IMG/VR virus record: IMGVR_UViG_3300046557_000378
Reading direction: 5' to 3' (one strand)
DNA length: 62,170 bases
Source of the DNA: a virus
Under the pieces are notes generated by a model. That model was given only the letters and a program-made list of their open reading frames with translations. It was not told the origin of the DNA and ran no database searches. Numbering within the stretch: the first letter of the stretch is position 1; every line of letters begins with the position of its first letter. Below are positions 6,606 through 62,170 of this stretch, one piece after another. The position numbers and the translations under genes were made by a program.

Positions 6606-6639
6606 CCCGCGTCACATCACCCTCTGATTCCCCCATTAC
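6606..6639 (+). promoter_or_regulatory. phage-specific promoter-like motif, copy 1 (CCCGCGTCACA-N11-TTCCCCCATTAC)
   Basis: One of five near-identical sites; GTCACA 6611-6616 and CATTAC 6634-6639 are 17 nt apart; 31 nt before ATG 6670. Confidence 0.5.
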
Positions 6640-6669: not shown

Positions 6670-7269
6670 ATGGGCAACATCGGCATCATCGGCCGCGCGA
6701 GGGCCGGCAAGGACACCGCGGGGAAGTTCTTCGTCGACGGGCACGGGTACAGGCGGATCGGGTTCGCGGACGCGCTGAAGGAAGCGGCGCTGAGGCTGGA
6801 TCCGGTCGTCGGGTGCTTTCCGGACGAGGACACCCGAGCGGCCGTGTACGTGCACCTGTCGGAGGTCGTCGGTACGCACGGGTGGGAGGTTGCCAAGGAG
6901 ACCCCCGAAGTCCGCCGCATCCTCCAGGAACTCGGCTCCGCCATGCGCGCCGTCGACGAGGAGGTCTGGCTCCGCGCGGCACTGGCGAAGGTCCGCAACG
7001 CCAACGACCAGGGTGTGCCCGTCGTCATCACCGACGTCCGGTACCGCAACGAAGCGGCGTCCCTCGTCCGCGCCGGATTCCACCTGCTTCACATCAACCG
7101 ACCCGGCGTCCCGCAGCTCGACCACGAGTCGGAGCGGGATCTCGGGCCGGAGGACGCGCGCTACCTCGTCCAGAACGACGGCGATCTTGCCCACTTGGGT
7201 GAGCAGCTCGAACTCATCTGGGACGAGATTTTCGCCCTGGAGTCCGCCCGCCACTTCGCCCGCCTCTGA
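6670..7269 (+). CDS. deoxynucleoside monophosphate kinase-like P-loop kinase
   Basis: 199 aa; N-terminal Walker A GIIGRARAGKDT; size and pattern as phage dNMP kinases. Confidence 0.7.
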   Translation: MGNIGIIGRARAGKDTAGKFFVDGHGYRRIGFADALKEAALRLDPVVGCFPDEDTRAAVYVHLSEVVGTHGWEVAKETPEVRRILQELGSAMRAVDEEVWLRAALAKVRNANDQGVPVVITDVRYRNEAASLVRAGFHLLHINRPGVPQLDHESERDLGPEDARYLVQNDGDLAHLGEQLELIWDEIFALESARHFARL

Positions 7270-7628: not shown

Positions 7629-7689
7629 GTAAGACGACTGACGGAGCTGCCTCATAGCGTGTTGTGGTGGTCGACATAATGCCTATACT
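7629..7689 (+). promoter_or_regulatory. early promoter/operator module 1 (palindrome variant + TTGTGG-N16-TATACT, GGTCGACATAA in spacer)
   Basis: GTAAGACGACTGAC 7629-7642; TTGTGG 7662-7667; TATACT 7684-7689, 6 nt before ATG 7696 (leaderless). Confidence 0.55.
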
Positions 7690-7695
7690 CCGGCC

Positions 7696-8322: not shown

Positions 8323-8412
8323 TCACCACGGCTACCGTGCGGTAAGGTCTGTCGAAAGTCAGTGATTGACGGTACTGTGCGTGCGGTAGCCGTGTGCCCT
8401 AGAGAGGTCAGG

Positions 8413-9180
8413 ATGAGCCGTAAGGACGTCGCCCGAGCGGGGCAAGGCATCGTGGCTGGCATCAAAGACGTCGCCCTGCCGGCGCTGGACCTCGACGAGA
8501 TCGAGAACGAGCCTGAAGGCGCGCTCATCGCGCGAGGTGCTGCCTACGCTCGTGAGTATGCGGCGATCGAGGACAAGCCGACGATCCTGGCAATGAACAT
8601 CGCCACCGTGCTACTCGCGATCAGGAAACAGCACGACGACTGGCTAGGCAGATCTCATGAGTACCGTCTGGTAGCAGCAGAGGTCTACGCACAGGCCAAC
8701 ATCCCGGATGACGCCAGAAAGCGACTTCAAGGCGCAGTCAGATACCACGTCGGAAACATGCTCCGTCGGTACCTGACCCCCCGTGAACTGAAGTCACTGG
8801 AGCTGCTGGACACGTCCCCGCTGGAGCGTCAGCAAGACAACCGAGCGACGAACTCAGTGCTCCTGTCTGCGATGCGGGTAAGCGCAGAGGTTGAGGCGTC
8901 AACTCCGAAGCGCGCCCCGGCGCCGGCGAAGGGGAAGGCGACGTCGAAGGAGACGGTCCCCGAACAAGGAGGGGGCGCAGGCCTCGTCGTCAAGGCGACT
9001 GCCGATCACCTCCGCCTGGCACACGCCGCATCCAACATCCTCGGGCAGCTCAACGCCAGCGTCATCGACGAGCACATGACCGACGGACAGCGCGCCAAAC
9101 TTGACGAGGAGCTAGCGGAGGTCGAACGCGTGACCCGTCGGCTACGTCGGATGCTGAAAAGGGCCGGTTCAGAGGCCTGA
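8413..9180 (+). CDS. hypothetical protein
   Basis: ATG 8413 in frame within track ORF 8362-9180, preceded by GAGAGG; helical, Lys/Ala/Pro-rich linker. Confidence 0.6.
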   Translation: MSRKDVARAGQGIVAGIKDVALPALDLDEIENEPEGALIARGAAYAREYAAIEDKPTILAMNIATVLLAIRKQHDDWLGRSHEYRLVAAEVYAQANIPDDARKRLQGAVRYHVGNMLRRYLTPRELKSLELLDTSPLERQQDNRATNSVLLSAMRVSAEVEASTPKRAPAPAKGKATSKETVPEQGGGAGLVVKATADHLRLAHAASNILGQLNASVIDEHMTDGQRAKLDEELAEVERVTRRLRRMLKRAGSEA

Positions 9181-10132: not shown

Positions 10133-10166
10133 CCCGCGTCACATCTGCCCCCGCTTCCCCCATAAC
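10133..10166 (+). promoter_or_regulatory. phage-specific promoter-like motif, copy 2
   Basis: CCCGCGTCACA-N11-TTCCCCCATAAC; 39 nt before ATG 10205. Confidence 0.5.
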
Positions 10167-10204: not shown

Positions 10205-11008
10205 ATGGCCGGAGTGAGCACGATCAAGCGTGGCGGCAGCCGCTTCTACATCGACCCGGACGACGGAGCGATCAAGGTTCCGGGCGTGACCAGCGTGGGC
10301 GGCATGCTGCCGAAGGACTTCCTGACGTTCTGGGCAGCGAAGGAGGCCGCGGATGCGGCCGTCAACAACTGGGACATCGTCTCGGAGCTGATCAAGCGCG
10401 ACCCGAAGGGCGCCGTCGACTACCTGAAAAATGCGCACCGACGGAAGACGACGGCCGCAAGTGACTTGGGGTCCACAGCGCACGACCTCTTCGAGCGCCT
10501 GGCGCGCGGGGAGACCATCAACCCGCGGCACGTGCACGTCGACGTGAAGCCCCACGTCAGGTGGTTCTCGGAGTTCCTCCAGGAGGTGCAGCCGGAGTTC
10601 CTGTACCTCGAAGAGACGGTCTGGAGCGACACCAACCACTACGCCGGCAGCTTCGACGCCATCGCGGTTGTCGACGGGGAGACGGTCGTCCTCGACTGGA
10701 AGACGTCGAAGGCCGTGTACGACTCGGTGGCGCTCCAGTTGAGTGCCTACCGCTACGCGGACCGCATCATCCTCTCGTCCGACGGATCCTCAGTTCCGAT
10801 GCCGCAGATGGCCGGCGGAGCCGTCCTCCACGTCCGCCCGGAGGGCTGGCAGTTCGTCCCCGTCAAGTGCGACGAGGAGATCTACGAGACGTTCCTCCAC
10901 CTGCGCGGAGTCTTCGACTGGGAGAGCGGCGGCAAGCGTGGCGTCGTCGGCCGGCCGATCGCATCCGGCGGCGAGCTGGTGACGGGGACGCAGAGGCGGG
11001 CAGCGTGA
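10205..11008 (+). CDS. RecB/Cas4-family PD-(D/E)XK exonuclease
   Basis: 267 aa; SFDAIAVVDGETVVLDWKTSK (D...DxK) and QLSAYRYA (QxxxY) motifs. Confidence 0.8.
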   Translation: MAGVSTIKRGGSRFYIDPDDGAIKVPGVTSVGGMLPKDFLTFWAAKEAADAAVNNWDIVSELIKRDPKGAVDYLKNAHRRKTTAASDLGSTAHDLFERLARGETINPRHVHVDVKPHVRWFSEFLQEVQPEFLYLEETVWSDTNHYAGSFDAIAVVDGETVVLDWKTSKAVYDSVALQLSAYRYADRIILSSDGSSVPMPQMAGGAVLHVRPEGWQFVPVKCDEEIYETFLHLRGVFDWESGGKRGVVGRPIASGGELVTGTQRRAA

Positions 11009-13428: not shown

Positions 13429-13460
13429 AGCCCCCGGATGCTTCGGCGCCGGGGGCTTTC
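13429..13460 (+). terminator. terminator-like hairpin, member of a repeated hairpin+leader module
   Basis: AGCCCCCGG-11 nt-CCGGGGGCT then TTTCGG; about 85% identical to 20570-20600. Confidence 0.6.
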
Positions 13461-13490
13461 GGCGTGTAACCACACGAGAGGAGAGCCACC

Positions 13491-16722: not shown

Positions 16723-16756
16723 CCCGCGTCACATCGACGCTCCATTCCCCCATAAC
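16723..16756 (+). promoter_or_regulatory. phage-specific promoter-like motif, copy 3
   Basis: CCCGCGTCACA-N11-TTCCCCCATAAC; 65 nt before ATG 16821. Confidence 0.5.
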
Positions 16757-16820: not shown

Positions 16821-17567
16821 ATGGCCAACAACCTTGCCTCCATCTGGGACGCCGACCCGGACGCCGCTCCGAAGGACCGTCCCAACTTCGCCGATGACAT
16901 CGTCGGCCGCTTCCGCTCCGGTCGCCTGGTCAAGCTGGGCACGAAGGAGACCCCGGAGTCGCTGAACGAGTGGCGCGTCACCACCGGTGACCCGTCCGTC
17001 GCTGCGAAGGTTGCGGAGCTGCTCGGCGGGGAGTCGGAGGAGTGGGAGACGGAGAAGGAGGACAACCTCCAGATCCTCACCGACGCCTCGTCCGTGCAGA
17101 TCATCATCGAGCCGGATGGCGTCGACGCGTCGTTCAAGCAGTTCGTTCCCGGCGCCGGTATGACGCACCACTGCGATGGGTTTTCCTACCTCTCGCCCGA
17201 CGAGGACAAGGGCCAGTCGTGCGGCTGCCCCTCGCTGATCGCGGAGCGGAAGCTGAAGGCGCAGCAGCAGCGAGGCCCGAAGCCGAGCGTGGACATCGAG
17301 TTCCGCCTCGCCGACGCTCCGGATCTCGGCAAGTTCCGGTTCAACAGCGGCAGTTGGAAGCTGGTCGAGACCCTCGCCCCGCTCTTCAAGTCGCTGGACG
17401 ACGCGGGCAACGAGACCAACCCGGTCCGTGCGTCGCTGACGATCGAGAACGTCACGTACGTCCCGCAGAAGGGCCCGCGCGCCGGCCAGACCGTCAGCTA
17501 CAACAAGCCCGTCATCAAGGTCTTCGGGCCCGTGACGGCGACCGCGGACCTGGCGAAGGCCGCGTAA
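16821..17567 (+). CDS. hypothetical early protein; possible phiC31-gp3-type recombination directionality factor (size/position only)
   Basis: 248 aa; Cys/His cluster HHCDG...CGCP; strong GC3 bias; own promoter motif and terminator. Confidence 0.7.
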   Translation: MANNLASIWDADPDAAPKDRPNFADDIVGRFRSGRLVKLGTKETPESLNEWRVTTGDPSVAAKVAELLGGESEEWETEKEDNLQILTDASSVQIIIEPDGVDASFKQFVPGAGMTHHCDGFSYLSPDEDKGQSCGCPSLIAERKLKAQQQRGPKPSVDIEFRLADAPDLGKFRFNSGSWKLVETLAPLFKSLDDAGNETNPVRASLTIENVTYVPQKGPRAGQTVSYNKPVIKVFGPVTATADLAKAA

Positions 17568-20569: not shown

Positions 20570-20600
20570 AGCCCCCGGTGACTTCGGTCCCGGTGGCTTT
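20570..20600 (+). terminator. terminator-like hairpin, second copy of the hairpin+leader module
   Basis: AGCCCCCGG.../CCGGTGGCT TTTCGGCGTGTAAGCAC. Confidence 0.55.
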
Positions 20601-20640
20601 CGGCGTGTAAGCACATGTCGTCGGAAAGAGGAGAGACCGC

Positions 20641-28130: not shown

Positions 28131-28439
28131 ATGACCGAATTTCTTGACGCGCTTGATCGTGCGTCAGCTGAGGTCCGGCAGTTCGTCAACGCCTACGGCG
28201 ACGCAGTGACCATGCCGGGACGTCGTCCCGATGTGGATGCGGACGGAACCGGCCGGCAGGCGACGCACGGACCATCCCGCCCGACGGAGCTTGTGGCCCT
28301 AGACCTCGGTCGCGGAGCGCTCCAAGCAGAACTGAATAACGGCGTCAAGTGGCTGCCCTACGCGATAGCGGCAGTTCAAGGCGTCGCCGCATCCATGGAT
28401 CGCGCGCTCGCCCGATGGGAGGGGGAGGACGTGGCCTGA
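28131..28439 (+). CDS. hypothetical protein
   Basis: ATG 28131 in frame in track ORF 28068-28439. Confidence 0.5.
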   Translation: MTEFLDALDRASAEVRQFVNAYGDAVTMPGRRPDVDADGTGRQATHGPSRPTELVALDLGRGALQAELNNGVKWLPYAIAAVQGVAASMDRALARWEGEDVA

Positions 28440-28457
28440 ACAGTCCGGGGGGACGGG

Positions 28458-28679
28458 TTGATCATCATCACGGGGCCGCAAGCCACTGACGATGAAGTCG
28501 GGGATGTAGAAGAGATGGCGGCTTTGCTCGGGGCGCTGCCTGCCTACAGCGCCGCGATTCAGTGGGCGACGGTAACCGCCCTGTACTGCCTGGCCGGTTG
28601 GGAGACGTGCTCCCTGGCCGTGGCCGATGTTGCCGTGGCCGACGCACTCGGCCTGACGGTCCGGCACCTGCCTGTCTGA
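28458..28679 (+). CDS. hypothetical protein
   Basis: 73 aa; TTG start; acidic N-terminus, hydrophobic C-terminal half. Confidence 0.45.
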   Translation: MIIITGPQATDDEVGDVEEMAALLGALPAYSAAIQWATVTALYCLAGWETCSLAVADVAVADALGLTVRHLPV

Positions 28680-28684
28680 CCTCC

Positions 28685-28737
28685 GCTAGTCGACTGACGA
28701 AGCCCCCGTTCCTGCACGGGACGGGGGCTTTCGTTTG
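28685..28737 (+). terminator. palindrome variant GCTAGTCGACTGAC (28685-28698) followed by intrinsic terminator (28700-28737)
   Basis: AAGCCCCCGT-11 nt-ACGGGGGCTT then TCGTTT. Confidence 0.65.
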
Positions 28738-28771
28738 CCCAAATCACTGCGTGACCCAGGTCACTTACGAT

Positions 28772-28805
28772 CCCGCGTCACAACTAGCTCAGATTCCCCC
28801 ATTAC
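28772..28805 (+). promoter_or_regulatory. phage-specific promoter-like motif, copy 4 (upstream of sigma gene)
   Basis: CCCGCGTCACA-N11-TTCCCCCATTAC; 34 nt before ATG 28839. Confidence 0.5.
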
Positions 28806-28838
28806 CTCAGTACGCAAGGCACACACGGAGGAGACGGC

Positions 28839-29630
28839 ATGAACCGCATCGAGGTCACGGACGAGCAGATCCTTGCCGCACAGACGGGCGACGGTGACGC
28901 CATGTGGGACATCGTCCAGTCGTTCGACCCCATGCTGAAGAGCATCATCCGCAGCGCCGCCCCGAGCGCCAGCGCGGAGGACGCGGAGGATCACCTCCAA
29001 GAGGGACGCGCGGTATTGATCCAGCACATTCGCGACTACGACTCGTCGTCCTCGTCGGCTCAACTCTCCTCCTACGTCTACCGTGCTGTGCGCCGCGCCA
29101 TCGCGGAGGCGGACGTCGTGTCGAAGACTCCACTCACCATTGACGCAACGGCGGCGCTCCGTGTGCGCTGGGCGCTGTGGGAGTGCGGGGGAGACACCGA
29201 GCGGGCGTGGGCGACGTTCCGTGACGCGACGTCGCCGACGAAACGGATGAGCCGGGAACTGTTCATCGCGATGGTGGAGGCACTCGCCGGTACGGAGAGT
29301 CTGGACAGTCCGTTCGCGGGATCGCTTACCAGGCGTGCGGGCGCGATGGAGCGGGACAACGGCCTGACGCTCGCCGACGTCCTGGAAGACCGGGCGACGT
29401 CGGTCACCGACCCCCTGGAGCGCCGCGACCTCGCACGCTGGCTCATGACGCAGATCCCGCAACGTCAGTCACTCGCACTCCGCGCTTTCTACGGCGTCGG
29501 CATGACTCGCATGACCGACCCGGAACTGTGCGCGGACCTGGAGGTCAACGGCGTCGCCCTCCGACGGCTCCGCTCCCGCGGAGTGGCCTCCGCCCGCACC
29601 GTGGCCGACGCTCACGACCTTGCTGCGTAA
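28839..29630 (+). CDS. sigma-70-family RNA polymerase sigma factor (group-3-like)
   Basis: 263 aa; region-2-like DAMWDIVQSFDPMLKSII...EDHLQEGRAVLIQHIRDYD...SYVYRAVRRAI; region-4-like IPQRQSLALRAFYGVGMTRMTDPELCADLEVNGVALRRLRSRG. Confidence 0.7.
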   Translation: MNRIEVTDEQILAAQTGDGDAMWDIVQSFDPMLKSIIRSAAPSASAEDAEDHLQEGRAVLIQHIRDYDSSSSSAQLSSYVYRAVRRAIAEADVVSKTPLTIDATAALRVRWALWECGGDTERAWATFRDATSPTKRMSRELFIAMVEALAGTESLDSPFAGSLTRRAGAMERDNGLTLADVLEDRATSVTDPLERRDLARWLMTQIPQRQSLALRAFYGVGMTRMTDPELCADLEVNGVALRRLRSRGVASARTVADAHDLAA

Positions 29631-29664: not shown

Positions 29665-29811
29665 ATGAAGCGACTTCCTTCCCTCGACGACTACGACGTC
29701 GACGGTGTCCGCCTCGACGAGGCCGCCCTCTGGGGTGACGACATCAGGTACGCGGTGGAGGCCCGGAACGACTCAATGCCTCTCGACGGTTTCTCCGTCG
29801 AATCGCTCTGA
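29665..29811 (+). CDS. hypothetical acidic protein (48 aa, below track cutoff)
   Basis: ATG 34 nt after sigma stop; Asp-rich; ends 10 nt before operator 29822. Confidence 0.4.
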   Translation: MKRLPSLDDYDVDGVRLDEAALWGDDIRYAVEARNDSMPLDGFSVESL

Positions 29812-30955: not shown

Positions 30956-31024
30956 GTCAAACGACTGACGGAGGAAGTTTCTCCACGAACCATGTTGTGG
31001 TGGTCGACATAACTGTGCCATAGT
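30956..31024 (+). promoter_or_regulatory. early promoter/operator module 2
   Basis: GTCAAACGACTGAC 30956-30969; TTGTGG 30995-31000; N18 with GGTCGACATAA; CATAGT 31019-31024. Confidence 0.5.
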
Positions 31025-33038: not shown

Positions 33039-33101
33039 GTCAAACGACTGACGTTACTTCCCCTAAGGGTATTGTGGTGGTCGACATAACTGTGCCATAG
33101 T
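33039..33101 (+). promoter_or_regulatory. early promoter/operator module 3
   Basis: GTCAAACGACTGAC 33039-33052; TTGTGG 33072-33077; CATAGT 33096-33101. Confidence 0.5.
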
Positions 33102-40826: not shown

Positions 40827-40923
40827 GTTACGGATTCATAACGTCGGAGTAGTGTCATCGCACACCCTTTGGGTATCTCGGTGGCGTTGGCAGCCGTCTC
40901 GTCCACGTCGACCAGCGTCCCCA

Positions 40924-40977
40924 TCATCCACAGGCGTCTGTGGATAACTGCAAAGCGTTACCGGTTTCTGTGGATTC
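40924..40977. other. cluster of three DnaA-box-like 9-mers
   Basis: TCATCCACA (40924-40932, +), TGTGGATAA = TTATCCACA (40939-40947, -), TGTGGATTC (40969-40977, -). Confidence 0.35.
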
Positions 40978-41021
40978 GCAACACTGCGTAGTCACGTGAC
41001 CCGTCGAACGGTCCAAAACGT

Positions 41022-41090
41022 CAAACTAACCCCCTACTTCTAACTCTTCTAATACGCGTTAGAGAGAAGTAGAAAAAGGGGGTTAGTTTG
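41022..41090. repeat. 69-bp AT-rich imperfect palindrome, copy 2
   Basis: About 85% identical to 9231-9299; preceded by CCAAAACGT (reverse complement of the copy 1 3' flank). Confidence 0.9.
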
Positions 41091-41127
41091 CCACTCTGTC
41101 GCACCCCCGCCGGAGGGTGCTACCAAG

Positions 41128-41157
41128 ATCACTACCGCGTCACACTTCCCCCATAAC
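41128..41157 (+). promoter_or_regulatory. phage-specific promoter-like motif, copy 5 (spacer 10 bp shorter)
   Basis: CCGCGTCACA-c-TTCCCCCATAAC; an alternative -35-like ATCACT lies 18 nt upstream of CATAAC. Confidence 0.4.
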
Positions 41158-41355
41158 AGTAGTAGGAGGGGAGGACGTGCGGCCGTCGCGAATGGCGGAC
41201 GGTCCGCTCCCCTCCCTGACGGCCGGCGCCGCTCCTGCGCTCCCCGTACTCTCTCCTCCGGGTTGAGCGCGGTTGAGCGGCCCCGGCTGTCCCAAGACTT
41301 CCTTGCCCGGTGCATGGGACTTCGACCCGCTCGAAGCCCGGAACGGGGGAGGGTA

Positions 41356-41467
41356 GATCACGTAGTGCAGCGGCCAAGCACACCCGAGGGAGTAGGGATC
41401 GAGTCCCGCCGTCTGACGGCAAGTGGTCGCCCCTGGCGTATCGCCGGTTCGAATCCGGTCGTGATCA
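41356..41467 (+). ncRNA. tRNA-like element (acceptor, D and T arms; 60-nt non-canonical core)
   Basis: GATCACG-TA-GTGC-AGCGGCCAA-GCAC ... GCCGG-TTCGAAT-CCGGT-CGTGATC-A. Confidence 0.4.
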
Positions 41468-41646
41468 CTCGCTGTGTGGAGGGTTCGAAAGCGAGCGCGG
41501 ATTGTGAGAGCGCGTGATGCCACGCAGTGGTCATGGTTCCGGGTAAGTCCCCGGCACGCGACGACCAACACCCGGACCTTGTGGGTCCGTGGCGAGTCCA
41601 CTTGCGCCCCGTACGGCGGGGAGGCGGCATACGGACTCACAACCCA

Positions 41647-41671
41647 CCCCGTCCCTTGTGGGCGGGGTTTT
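41647..41671 (+). terminator. intrinsic terminator
   Basis: CCCCGTCCC-ttgt-GGGCGGGG then TTTT. Confidence 0.75.
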
Positions 41672-41745
41672 CGACGTCACCGGAGCCGGACGCGAAGCGG
41701 TGACGCGGTCAGGACTTCGCGCCACTGGCCGCACGGTGACGTCAA

Positions 41746-41819
41746 GCCTCCGTAGCTCAGTTGGCTAGAGCGCTGCTCTCGTAAAGCAGAGGTCGCGCGT
41801 TCGACTCGCGCCGGGGGCT
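41746..41819 (+). tRNA. tRNA-Thr (anticodon CGT)
   Basis: Hand-folded cloverleaf: acceptor GCCTCCG/CGGGGGC, D arm GCTC-AGTTGGCTA-GAGC, anticodon arm CTGCT-CTCGTAA-AGCAG, T arm GCGCG-TTCGACT-CGCGC. Confidence 0.85.
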
Positions 41820-41823
41820 CTCA

Positions 41824-41901
41824 CGGGACGTGGCCAAGTTGGTTCAGGGCGCCCGCTTTGGGAGCGGGAGGGCGAAGGTTCGAGTCGCACCATCCCGACC
41901 A
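41824..41901 (+). tRNA. tRNA-Pro (anticodon TGG) with encoded CCA and aberrant T stem
   Basis: C1-G72, A73, anticodon arm CCCGC-TTTGGGA-GCGGG; T stem GAAGG/CGCAC pairs only at its two ends. Confidence 0.6.
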
Positions 41902-60835: not shown

Positions 60836-62170
60836 GTGGCCATCACTGGCAACCTTCTGTCGGCCAACGCGGAGAGCATCGAAACGGATGCCTCCGCGTG
60901 GTCGGCGCTGGTCAACGCGGCGACCCTCACGCAGGGCTCAGGGGGCACGCTCGGTACCCATTGCCTGTCGTTCAAGTCCGTTGCGGCGGGGGACTGCCAA
61001 GTCGGTCTTGCCGCTCGGGTCGCAGTGACGCCAGGTGTCGAGCACTGGAGTTGCGCCTCGATCTTCCCGCCGGCGAGTGGCGCCACGGCGTGGCTTGAGA
61101 TCCGCTGGTACACATCCGGCGGGACGCTGATCAGTACGACGACGGGGCCGACGATCGCCGCCCCGGCCGCAACCTGGTTCCAGATAGCGGCAGTTGGAAC
61201 CGCCCCTGCCACGGCGGCAACTGCGCTAGTCGTTTTGCGCGTCACGGCAACGGCCGCTACTCAAAGCTGGTTCGCCGACAGGATCTTCCTGGGGCAGACG
61301 ATCCGGTCGACGGGCAACCTGTTGCCGTGGAGCACGGAGACGATCGAAGTCGACCGCTCCGGATGGGCTGCGGACACGAACTGCACGCTCGGCATCTCCA
61401 CGACGTCGTACACGTGGTATCAGTCGATGATCCTCACGTCGTCCGCGGCCGGCGCATGCCTAGCGCGGAATGCGGTGGCGGACGCTCCAGCAGTGACGCC
61501 AGGCGTCGAGTACGCAGCACAGGTTCAGGTGTCACCCGGAGTCAGCGCGCTGTCCTTCGCGATTCAGATCCGGTGGAGGGACGCGTCAGGGACGGAGATC
61601 GGAACCTCCTCCGCAGCCTTCACGCCGGCGAGCGGCCAATGGACGCGGTGCACAGTCGCTGCGACCGCCCCGGTCGGTGCCGTGACTGCACGCGTTGCAC
61701 TGGCACCCACGGCAACAGCCGCAGGGCAACAGTGGGTCCTCGACCGCATGCTCCTCGCGCCGACGAGCGCGCTCATGACGTCCGGGAACCTACTTCCCTA
61801 CAACACGAGCGACATCGAACAGGACTCGACCGGTTGGACGGTGACCGGCGGGACGGCCACGCAGACGACGGAGCAAGTCCTAGGCGGTGCCTACGCCTTG
61901 CGAATCGCCGCTACTGGCGGCGACGTCGTGGCAACGATCACCGTACCTGTTGGCGGCGTGCAAGAGGATCTCGGCTATCAGTTCGCTCCCTGCGTCTACA
62001 AGCCCGTCACTCGCGTCTACCAAACGCGCATCGAGTGGTTGAACTCCGCAGGCGATGCGGTGCGGACGAGGTGGCAGTCCTGGACCGGCGCCGTGGGTGG
62101 GTGGGCCGTCGCACGCATGGGCGACCTGGCCCCCGAGGGGGCCGTCTCCGCTCGCCTGAGCCTGCTAGTC
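60836..62170 (+). CDS. minor tail protein, N-terminal part with three tandem ~150-aa carbohydrate-binding-module-like repeats (continues at nt 51-911)
   Basis: No stop to window end; repeats each begin GNLL(S/P)xN...E.D..GW; full product is 731 aa after removing the overlap. Confidence 0.85.
   Translation, partial: MAITGNLLSANAESIETDASAWSALVNAATLTQGSGGTLGTHCLSFKSVAAGDCQVGLAARVAVTPGVEHWSCASIFPPASGATAWLEIRWYTSGGTLISTTTGPTIAAPAATWFQIAAVGTAPATAATALVVLRVTATAATQSWFADRIFLGQTIRSTGNLLPWSTETIEVDRSGWAADTNCTLGISTTSYTWYQSMILTSSAAGACLARNAVADAPAVTPGVEYAAQVQVSPGVSALSFAIQIRWRDASGTEIGTSSAAFTPASGQWTRCTVAATAPVGAVTARVALAPTATAAGQQWVLDRMLLAPTSALMTSGNLLPYNTSDIEQDSTGWTVTGGTATQTTEQVLGGAYALRIAATGGDVVATITVPVGGVQEDLGYQFAPCVYKPVTRVYQTRIEWLNSAGDAVRTRWQSWTGAVGGWAVARMGDLAPEGAVSARLSLLV
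62121..62170. repeat. terminal direct repeat (identical to 1-50)
   Basis: Read directly. Confidence 0.95.

Follow-up and report, generated by a model that had tools for sequence, protein, structure and literature searches.

The 62,170-nucleotide (nt) stretch of viral DNA analysed here, IMG/VR record IMGVR_UViG_3300046557_000378 (the window from here on), carries the gene of a sigma factor of the σ70 family together with five copies of a two-block motif, one of which lies directly before the sigma gene itself. We consider it highly probable that the phage sigma factor reads these five copies as its promoters, that of its own gene included, as the initial annotation of the window had proposed. 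This reading is carried by the synteny of the sites among related phages, by promoter blocks that are specific to each genome, by the covariation of these blocks with distinct segments of the sigma protein and by a common start-site signature. The window is the complete genome of a φC31-like temperate Streptomyces phage: an exact 50-nt direct repeat at its termini (1-50 and 62121-62170) marks it as a circular assembly, and hence as a full phage genome of about 62,120 bp. Its closest relative is the temperate Streptomyces phage Samy (OR263580), the nearest record, to which part of the region has ~74% DNA identity.

The sigma factor and its candidate promoters

The 263-residue open reading frame (ORF) previously assigned to the σ70 family encodes a sigma factor of that family, as is evident from Pfam region 2, from a SigA/RpoS profile alignment across regions 2 to 4 and from the fold. 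The Pfam model Sigma70_r2 matches it with 29.1 bits (cut-off 24), a match common to 44/44 aligned members of its family, and it falls into the PHROG sigma-factor families 351/15865. A profile of the family, searched against the PDB, recovers SigA (8x6f_E, E=4e-5) and also RpoS. The alignment extends from the core-binding region 2.2 via a region-3.0-like helix to the helix-turn-helix (HTH) of region 4.2, and places the region 2.2 motif DxLQE(G/A)RxxLIQHxRDYD on the SigA segment DLIQEGNxGLIKAVEKFD. The AlphaFold model, computed from an alignment that contained no Samy sequence, has a mean predicted local distance difference test score (pLDDT) of 84, with a helical HTH at residues 208-258 (pLDDT about 95). 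With this model as the query, the top 50 Foldseek matches were all σ70-family chains aligned over about 255-290 columns (best 5ipl_F, E=3.8e-6), and both the σ2-σ3-σ4 domain order and the overall fold of the σ70 family are recovered. The accompanying template-modelling (TM) scores are only about 0.3, which reflects the comparison of a compact free model with chains taken from holoenzymes. The region-4-like HTH noted at the outset is missed by the Pfam region-4 models, its support coming from the profile alignment through region 4.2 and from the predicted fold.

The best matches by both profile and fold are accordingly SigA/σ70 and RpoS, aligned over regions 2.1-2.4, 3.0 and 4.2. The window protein differs from these in lacking region 1, in having RA where the profile alignment shows the WW of the SigA motif YATWWIRQAI, and in a region 4 that has diverged past the Pfam models. 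Membership of the extracytoplasmic function (ECF, group 4) sigma factors was considered and rejected: the ECF-type model TIGR02937 scores the protein at 33.4 bits, below its cut-off of 42.9, and a region-3.0-like helix and about 90 residues separate σ2 from σ4. The family as a whole comprises 142 protein clusters, mostly in Streptomyces prophages; in the alignment the window sigma is 55% identical to Samy gp68, its orthologue, and 30% identical to φC31 gp12.

The motif CCCGCGTCACA-N11-TTCCCCCATWAC has four exact matches in the window, all of them intergenic and on the + strand, against 0.00 expected from dinucleotide-preserving shuffles (sites 1 to 4; Table 1). Beyond these long forms, the downstream 12-mer TTCCCCCATWAC is found on either strand of the window at 41146-41157 alone. 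This is the fifth, short-form site, ACCGCGTCACA-C-TTCCCCCATAAC, in which GTCACA (41139-41144) is followed after 1 nt by TTCCCCCATAAC (41146-41157). The set of five sites as originally described is therefore real, its fifth member included, although the latter starts at 41134 rather than at 41135. The spacing between GTCACA and CATWAC is 17 bp in all four long sites, and from the end of the motif it is 31, 39, 65 and 34 nt, respectively, to the start codons at 6670, 10205, 16821 and 28839, just as had been reported. A position matrix built without the window's own sites, from the relatives only, scores the four long sites at 32-41 bits; the next-best position in the window reaches 2.8 bits and the maximum in shuffled sequence is 14.9. 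The same family matrix retrieved no weaker extra sites in the window, the late genes for instance having none before them.

The consensus of 69 long-form sites reads GTCACA-TC…CCC-CA(T/C)(A/T)AC. In every one of these (69/69) the seventh base past the −10 hexamer is a purine, and in all but one (68/69) it is preceded by a pyrimidine. The hexamers agree with TTGACA and TATAAT at 4/6 positions each. Like promoters of the SigA/σ70 type, those of the window combine a −35 element with an extended −10 at a 17-bp spacing and with a predicted start 7 nt further on; they differ in having C for T at −12 and −7. The −35/−10 geometry attributed to the motif accordingly holds for the four long sites; the spacer of site 5, exactly 10 bp shorter (1 nt against 11 nt), is incompatible with it, a point that the initial annotation passed over.

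The motif might alternatively be a repressor operator or some other non-initiating site, with the sigma-like protein regulating by binding DNA on its own. A free, compact protein of this kind could fit the compact short form, and the conserved sequence does reach past the two hexamers, the likeness among the sites going on 3' of the motif (e.g. ..tGTGTAAG..). Against this, the copies all lie on the coding strand, either at the above distances before start codons or before a tRNA unit; they combine promoter geometry with the purine start-site signature; and the protein retains the core-binding region 2.2 motif. Furthermore, the window already has a repressor homologue and, apart from the motif, a family of palindromic operators. 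We regard an operator function as very improbable, because that different palindromic family fills the role.

The likeness to the FliA/WhiG group of sigma factors suggested in the initial annotation found no support. The protein is of similar length (about 260 aa), and CCCCATAA matches the FliA/WhiG −10 element GCCGATAA at 6/8 positions. The FliA/WhiG promoter, however, is TAAA-N15-GCCGATAA, and the window −35 block GTCACA is unrelated to TAAA. No NCBIfam or Pfam FliA/WhiG model matches the protein, the family profile prefers SigA and RpoS, and the hexamers are nearer TTGACA/TATAAT. A single-sequence PDB search gave a weak match (E=0.1) to 6pfv/6pfj, annotated only as 'RNA polymerase sigma factor', which we take to be the WhiG-RsiG complex.

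Joint variation of promoter blocks and sigma segments

The promoter copies are syntenic among relatives. All five positions are occupied in Samy as well, by sites with the same upstream block and with TTACGACAYAAC in place of the downstream block TTCCCCCATWAC. A syntenic counterpart of site 1 is found in Samy and 8 IMG/VR contigs, and sites 2 and 3 likewise have syntenic counterparts in relatives. All sigma homologues examined, from 27 genomes and 23 viral contigs, are preceded by one and the same layout: terminator, palindrome, nnnACA, 17 bp and CAYWAC. Around the exonuclease gene loci, even the loose pattern NNNACA-N11-N6-CAYWAC occurs at only two or three positions, which are syntenic and on the + strand.

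The sequence of the blocks changes from phage to phage. In five genomes from which four sites each were recovered, the blocks are uniform within a genome and different between genomes, the combinations of upstream and downstream block being GTCACA/GCGCCC (two genomes), CAAC-CGAACA/ACGCCC, GGT-ACTGGA/TTCCCC and GTCACA/TTACGA. The two blocks hence vary independently of each other, yet concertedly per genome, which is what one would expect of a phage-encoded reader with two recognition modules.

This pattern bears on the possibility that a host sigma factor, HrdB or an alternative one, reads the motif while the phage sigma-like protein has some other role. The resemblance of the hexamers to TTGACA/TATAAT is compatible with such a reader, as is the fact that the first expression of the phage sigma is otherwise unexplained. 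A host reader, though, would not yield blocks that differ among phages of the same host genus and are uniform in each phage, and both blocks covary with the phage protein, as detailed below. A primary sigma factor, moreover, needs the positions at −7 and −12, where the motif has C. We accordingly deem reading by a host sigma factor a very unlikely explanation.

To relate protein to promoter, 43 non-redundant sigma sequences were each paired with the promoter before their own gene (loci and genomes are labelled L001, L002 and so on). Segment identity in a blind 10-residue sliding window was compared pairwise with DNA-block identity, controlling for identity over the rest of the protein, with 300 label permutations. 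For the −35 hexamer this yields a single sharp peak at residues 239-248 (VALRRLRSRG; r=0.70), with the rest of the protein near zero; the permuted maximum is 0.44 and none of the 300 permutations reaches the observed value. For the −18..−7 block the peak lies at residues about 91-135 (r=0.57; permuted maximum 0.29; 0/300). The first segment is predicted to be the recognition helix of region 4.2 and the second the region 2.4/3.0 segment. In the profile alignment R242/R243 fall on the −35-contacting positions of the SigA recognition helix, and D101 on the SigA reader of the extended −10.

The helix follows the −35 type closely: genomes with GTCACA have ALR(R/K/Q)LRS(R/N)G, those with ACTGGA have SVQPYRAEA, the CGAACA genome has RLRALRHDG and the GGAACA genomes have RLRRLRFDG. 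The change is seen even within one subclade, where L015 and L018 (GTCACA, ALRxLRSRG) stand against L012 and L063 (CGA[AG]CA, RLxxxRxxG). At the other end of the promoter, the region 2.4/3.0 segment of Samy gp68 differs from that of the window sigma in step with its different downstream block. As the helix that covaries with the −35 block is encoded in the part of the gene farthest from the promoter, physical linkage is not the explanation.

The same helix is central to a further alternative, in which the sigma factor reads only the extended −10, and the upstream block is the site of another phage or host activator, bound to the same helix face at −33 or −23. Long and short forms differ by 10 bp (one helical turn), as activator sites typically do and −35 elements do not. 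In one genome the locus of the short form is occupied by the long one, and promoters of the φC31 group are compact throughout. Yet the upstream block covaries sharply and exclusively with the sigma's own C-terminal helix, and the position of this helix, remote from the promoter, leaves linkage as no explanation of the signal; as the covariation analysis covered the sigma factor alone among the phage proteins, a second reader encoded near the 3' end of the sigma gene is a slight possibility. This division of labour is in our estimate unlikely.

The proposed mechanism and the short-form site

In the mechanism that we favour, the sigma factor, bound to host core RNA polymerase, would initiate at the five phage promoters, with the following targets: the dNMP (deoxynucleoside monophosphate) kinase gene; the exonuclease operon; the gp3-like recombination directionality factor (RDF) gene with the genes following it; the sigma gene; and the leader with two tRNAs. 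At the long forms the C-terminal HTH, by its recognition helix (239-248), would read the −35 block (CGC)GTCACA, and the region 2.4/3.0 segment (about 91-135) would read the extended −10 TTCCCC-CATWAC across the 17-bp spacer, with transcription predicted to start at the purine 7 nt after the hexamer. As site 4 precedes the sigma gene, this gene would be a target of its own product, giving positive feedback.

Samy and six other genomes have the short form at the same locus, ahead of the conserved leader and the tRNAs; the genome mentioned above has the long form there. The upstream block of the short form is the genome's own variant: GCCACA in L058, GTACTGG in L059 and GTCAC(A/G) elsewhere. The short form would thus seem to have the same reader, acting at −25..−20. 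ATCACT, at 18-bp spacing, was considered as an alternative −35 for site 5 and rejected, since it is conserved neither in Samy (ATCGTT) nor in the ACTGGA-type genome. It is possible that the short form is read by a flexible σ4 docking one turn closer; that it is a −35-independent promoter whose block binds the sigma unproductively; or that it is bound by free sigma.

A broader proposal, which we put forward tentatively and hold to be rather doubtful, is that this sigma family reads its upstream element either at −35 (17-bp spacer) or at ~−25 (7-bp spacer), the compact arrangement being the rule in φC31, φBT1, TG1 and relatives, and that the family amounts to a set of modular, mutually orthogonal Streptomyces sigma/promoter pairs with a code readable from covariation. 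Reading at two distances would give a promoter geometry that has no described precedent among σ70-family holoenzymes, and, if the same region 4 does read the short-spacer promoter, the rule of a fixed σ2-σ4 spacing would be challenged.

Several points weigh against the reading of the five sites by the phage sigma factor. First, core binding, initiation at the sites and autoregulation of the sigma gene are steps that we infer. Second, the Pfam region-4 models miss the C-terminus of the protein, only 1 of 44 family members being matched (E=0.078); the region 4 assignment therefore rests on profile, fold and covariation. Third, the covariation test draws on sequence pairs that lack phylogenetic independence. 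In particular, the link of region 2.4/3.0 to the −18..−13 stretch is confounded by phylogeny: no simple residue code emerged for this stretch, and L024/L059 are exceptional in pairing TTCCCC with an 'EEWVR'-type segment. Fourth, a scan of 28400-28900 found no host-type promoter for the first sigma molecules. Finally, there is the short form. Canonical holoenzyme geometry has a spacer of 17±1 bp, and the short-form block at −25..−20 is beyond the reach of canonical σ2-σ4 spacing, yet it covaries there. Two short-form sites (L069/L072 and L066) deviate from the long-form blocks of their own genomes. An exact scan for CGAACA-N-ACGCCCCATWAC, the short form that the CGAACA genome would have, returned two unrelated contigs only (GC 0.60/0.42) and is uninformative.

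Regulation of the sigma gene, phage context and known systems

The sigma promoter has a feature of its own among the five, a palindrome of the TGTGA-N6-TCACA type (CGTGACCCAGGTCACT). It is found in 42/43 sigma loci (L001, L004-L063), its centre lying at −53.5 or −54.5 in 39 loci and, in L018 and L053, exactly one turn (10 bp) further out. A common reader for the palindrome and the −35 block was rejected, as genomes with an altered −35 block keep TGTGA..TCACA unchanged. The palindrome fits the footprint consensus of Streptomyces coelicolor Crp, GTG(N)6GNCAC (PMC3520106). Such a consensus is too loose to mean much alone, and the window shows no enrichment of it (9 matches, 17 expected). The palindrome is probably bound by a separate regulator that acts as a dimer; this regulator, for which host Crp is a possibility, may gate or start sigma expression. 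The term 'phage-autonomous', initially applied to the regulon, may be too strong in view of this conserved CRP-type palindrome, which suggests a possible link of host physiology to prophage induction.

Further upstream, a terminator-like hairpin splits the sigma unit from the preceding operon; its sequence, gggacgggggctttcg, is conserved 5' of most sigma homologues. Beyond it lies one copy of the operator-like palindrome family CCGTCAGTCGACTGACGG, which is distinct from the promoter motif and has 8 copies in the window at <=3 mismatches, against 0.14 expected. The copies adjoin three host-type promoters and also stand upstream of sites 3 and 4. With a repressor homologue encoded at 8392-9126, this family is probably the counterpart of the φC31 repressor operators. 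The separate host-like promoter family annotated earlier at about 7662, 30995 and 33072 indeed exists, as a repeat TTGTGGTGGTCGACATAA…TATACT/CATAGT; its three members are probably repressor-controlled promoters read by the host polymerase. Directly 3' of the sigma gene, a 48-aa ORF (29665-29811) is 71% identical to Samy gp69 and thus conserved in the sigma operon; it is conceivable that its product is a partner or modulator of the sigma factor.

Table 1. Sites, genes and regulatory elements located in the window.
Feature	Position	Strand	Remarks
Promoter site 1, long form	6606..6639	+	before dNMP kinase gene 6670-7269 (phrog_139); predicted start G 6646; 34.5 bits
Promoter site 2, long form	10133..10166	+	before exonuclease operon, 10205-11008 onwards (phrog_298); predicted start G 10173; 41.4 bits
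Promoter site 3, long form	16723..16756	+	before φC31 gp3-like RDF gene 16821-17567 and following genes; predicted start G 16763; 39.6 bits
Promoter site 4, long form	28772..28805	+	before sigma gene; −35 GTCACA 28777-28782, −10 CATTAC 28800-28805; predicted start A 28812; 32.1 bits
Promoter site 5, short form	41134..41157	+	predicted start A 41164
Site 5 unit	41158..41901	+	non-coding leader 41158-41745; tRNA-Thr 41746-41820; tRNA-Pro 41824-41901 (ARAGORN, Rfam)
Sigma factor gene	28839..29630	+	263 aa; σ70 family with σ2, σ3-like and σ4 parts; Samy gp68 orthologue, distant homologue of φC31 gp12
Palindrome CGTGACCCAGGTCACT, TGTGA-N6-TCACA type	28750..28765	.	centred at −54.5 of sigma promoter
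Terminator-like hairpin with T tract	28708..28728	+	between upstream operon and sigma unit
Operator-like palindrome, family CCGTCAGTCGACTGACGG	28683..28700	.	one copy, upstream of site 4
All copies of CCGTCAGTCGACTGACGG family	7627, 16694, 28683, 29820, 30333, 30954, 33037, 52581
Host-type promoter-like repeat	7649-7691		just 3' of operator palindrome
Host-type promoter-like repeat	30982-31024		just 3' of operator palindrome
Host-type promoter-like repeat	33059-33101		just 3' of operator palindrome

The gene order of the window follows that of Samy and φC31. The tail fibre gene is succeeded by site 1 and the dNMP kinase gene, and these by a host-type promoter with the SprT-like and repressor genes; there follow site 2 with the exonuclease operon and site 3 with the gp3-like RDF gene (phrog_9220; 81% identical to the Samy RDF), primase and polymerase; and then the terminator, the palindrome, site 4 and the sigma gene, the integrase gene, and site 5 with the leader, tRNA-Thr and tRNA-Pro. 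The Samy annotation ties many Samy genes to φC31 and labels the sigma gene 'related to φC31 Gp12'; gp68 itself is annotated as 'RNA polymerase sigma factor'. The paper describing Samy mentions neither promoters nor the gp68 sigma.

The unusual early promoters of φC31 have been known since the 1990s; Ingham and colleagues reportedly mapped these phage-specific promoters in 1993 and showed their activation only during lytic growth. φC31 resembles the window in several respects: it has the same order of dNMP kinase, repressor, exonuclease, gp3 RDF, primase, polymerase, sigma, integrase and tRNA genes; a multi-copy, one-strand motif (about 11 copies) before early genes, including the sigma gene and the tRNA; and a separate palindromic operator family, its repeat CCTACTCACGTGAGTAGG being present in 16 copies. 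Its gp12, annotated in RefSeq as an RNA polymerase sigma factor, is homologous to the window sigma, with Pfam region 2 in both, and is likewise encoded after the DNA polymerase gene in the early region. There are also differences: gp12 has 396 aa, with a ~100-residue insertion before region 4, against 263 aa; the φC31 motif is unrelated in sequence to that of the window; and the motifs of the φC31 group are compact and contiguous (15-21 bp, e.g. CCGGGTTGCCGACTCCCTTAC) without a −35 at 17 bp, whereas the window has the two-block form at 4/5 sites. Measured against the φC31-type compact element (~20 bp, ending near −7), the four long sites of the window do not conform and site 5 alone is compact.

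φC31 (L002) and seven other phages (L075-L081: φBT1, TG1, Euratis, Rowa, Shaeky, Sebastisaurus and Nesbitt) each have their own compact one-strand motif in about 10-15 copies, one of them before the sigma gene. Among four phages of this group with a common downstream part (n=4 only), the HTH helix follows the adjacent upstream sub-block: φBT1 and Euratis share the GTCAC sub-block and the helix, while φC31 (GTTGC) and TG1 (GTCGC) each differ in the helix. The searchable literature, outside which the original φC31 promoter papers lie, contained no paper linking gp12 or its homologues to these promoters.

The window system is hence a counterpart of the φC31 early promoters with gp12, and so not new in kind. 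What goes further than annotation is the covariation map, the modular diversity across the 142 clusters and the dual spacing. The covariation points to gp12-family sigma factors as the readers of φC31-type early promoters, so that an old question is now testable; it names residues for mutation, with 239-248 as those tied to the −35 block and about 91-135 as those tied to the extended −10. The 142 clusters, moreover, constitute naturally diversified sigma/promoter pairs with two independent modules, and are possible orthogonal switches for use in antibiotic-producing Streptomyces.

Phage sigma cascades are known from other systems, such as: the Bacillus phage SPO1 with gp28 and gp33/34; and T4 with gp55. 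In each case the phage proteins redirect the host core polymerase to promoters with a consensus of their own. These belong to unrelated lineages and hosts, whereas the phage of the window is temperate. The window sigma further differs in having a promoter of its own class, which would provide positive feedback, and in that one promoter copy has a 10-bp-shorter spacer.

The leader downstream of site 5 is conserved in Samy and L058. Within it, GACGGCCGGCnnCGCTCCnGnGCTCCCCG recurs in Samy and in some nine further phage contigs, and an element resembling a T arm, GGTTCGAATCC, lies near 41455. ARAGORN found no tRNA within the leader, and Rfam gave only weak sub-threshold matches to it, none of them credible; a structured phage RNA is one candidate identity for the leader and a degenerate tRNA another. 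Most relatives share a conserved sequence, GAAAAnnGGGGTTAGTTTG…CCAAGATCA (window 40830-41130; L065-L074), in the stretch from the integrase gene to the short-form promoter. Elsewhere in the early region, a terminator hairpin is present in two copies (13429-13474 and 20570-20615), each followed by a conserved GGCGTGTAA(C/G)CACA; the combination may be another regulatory or processing element.

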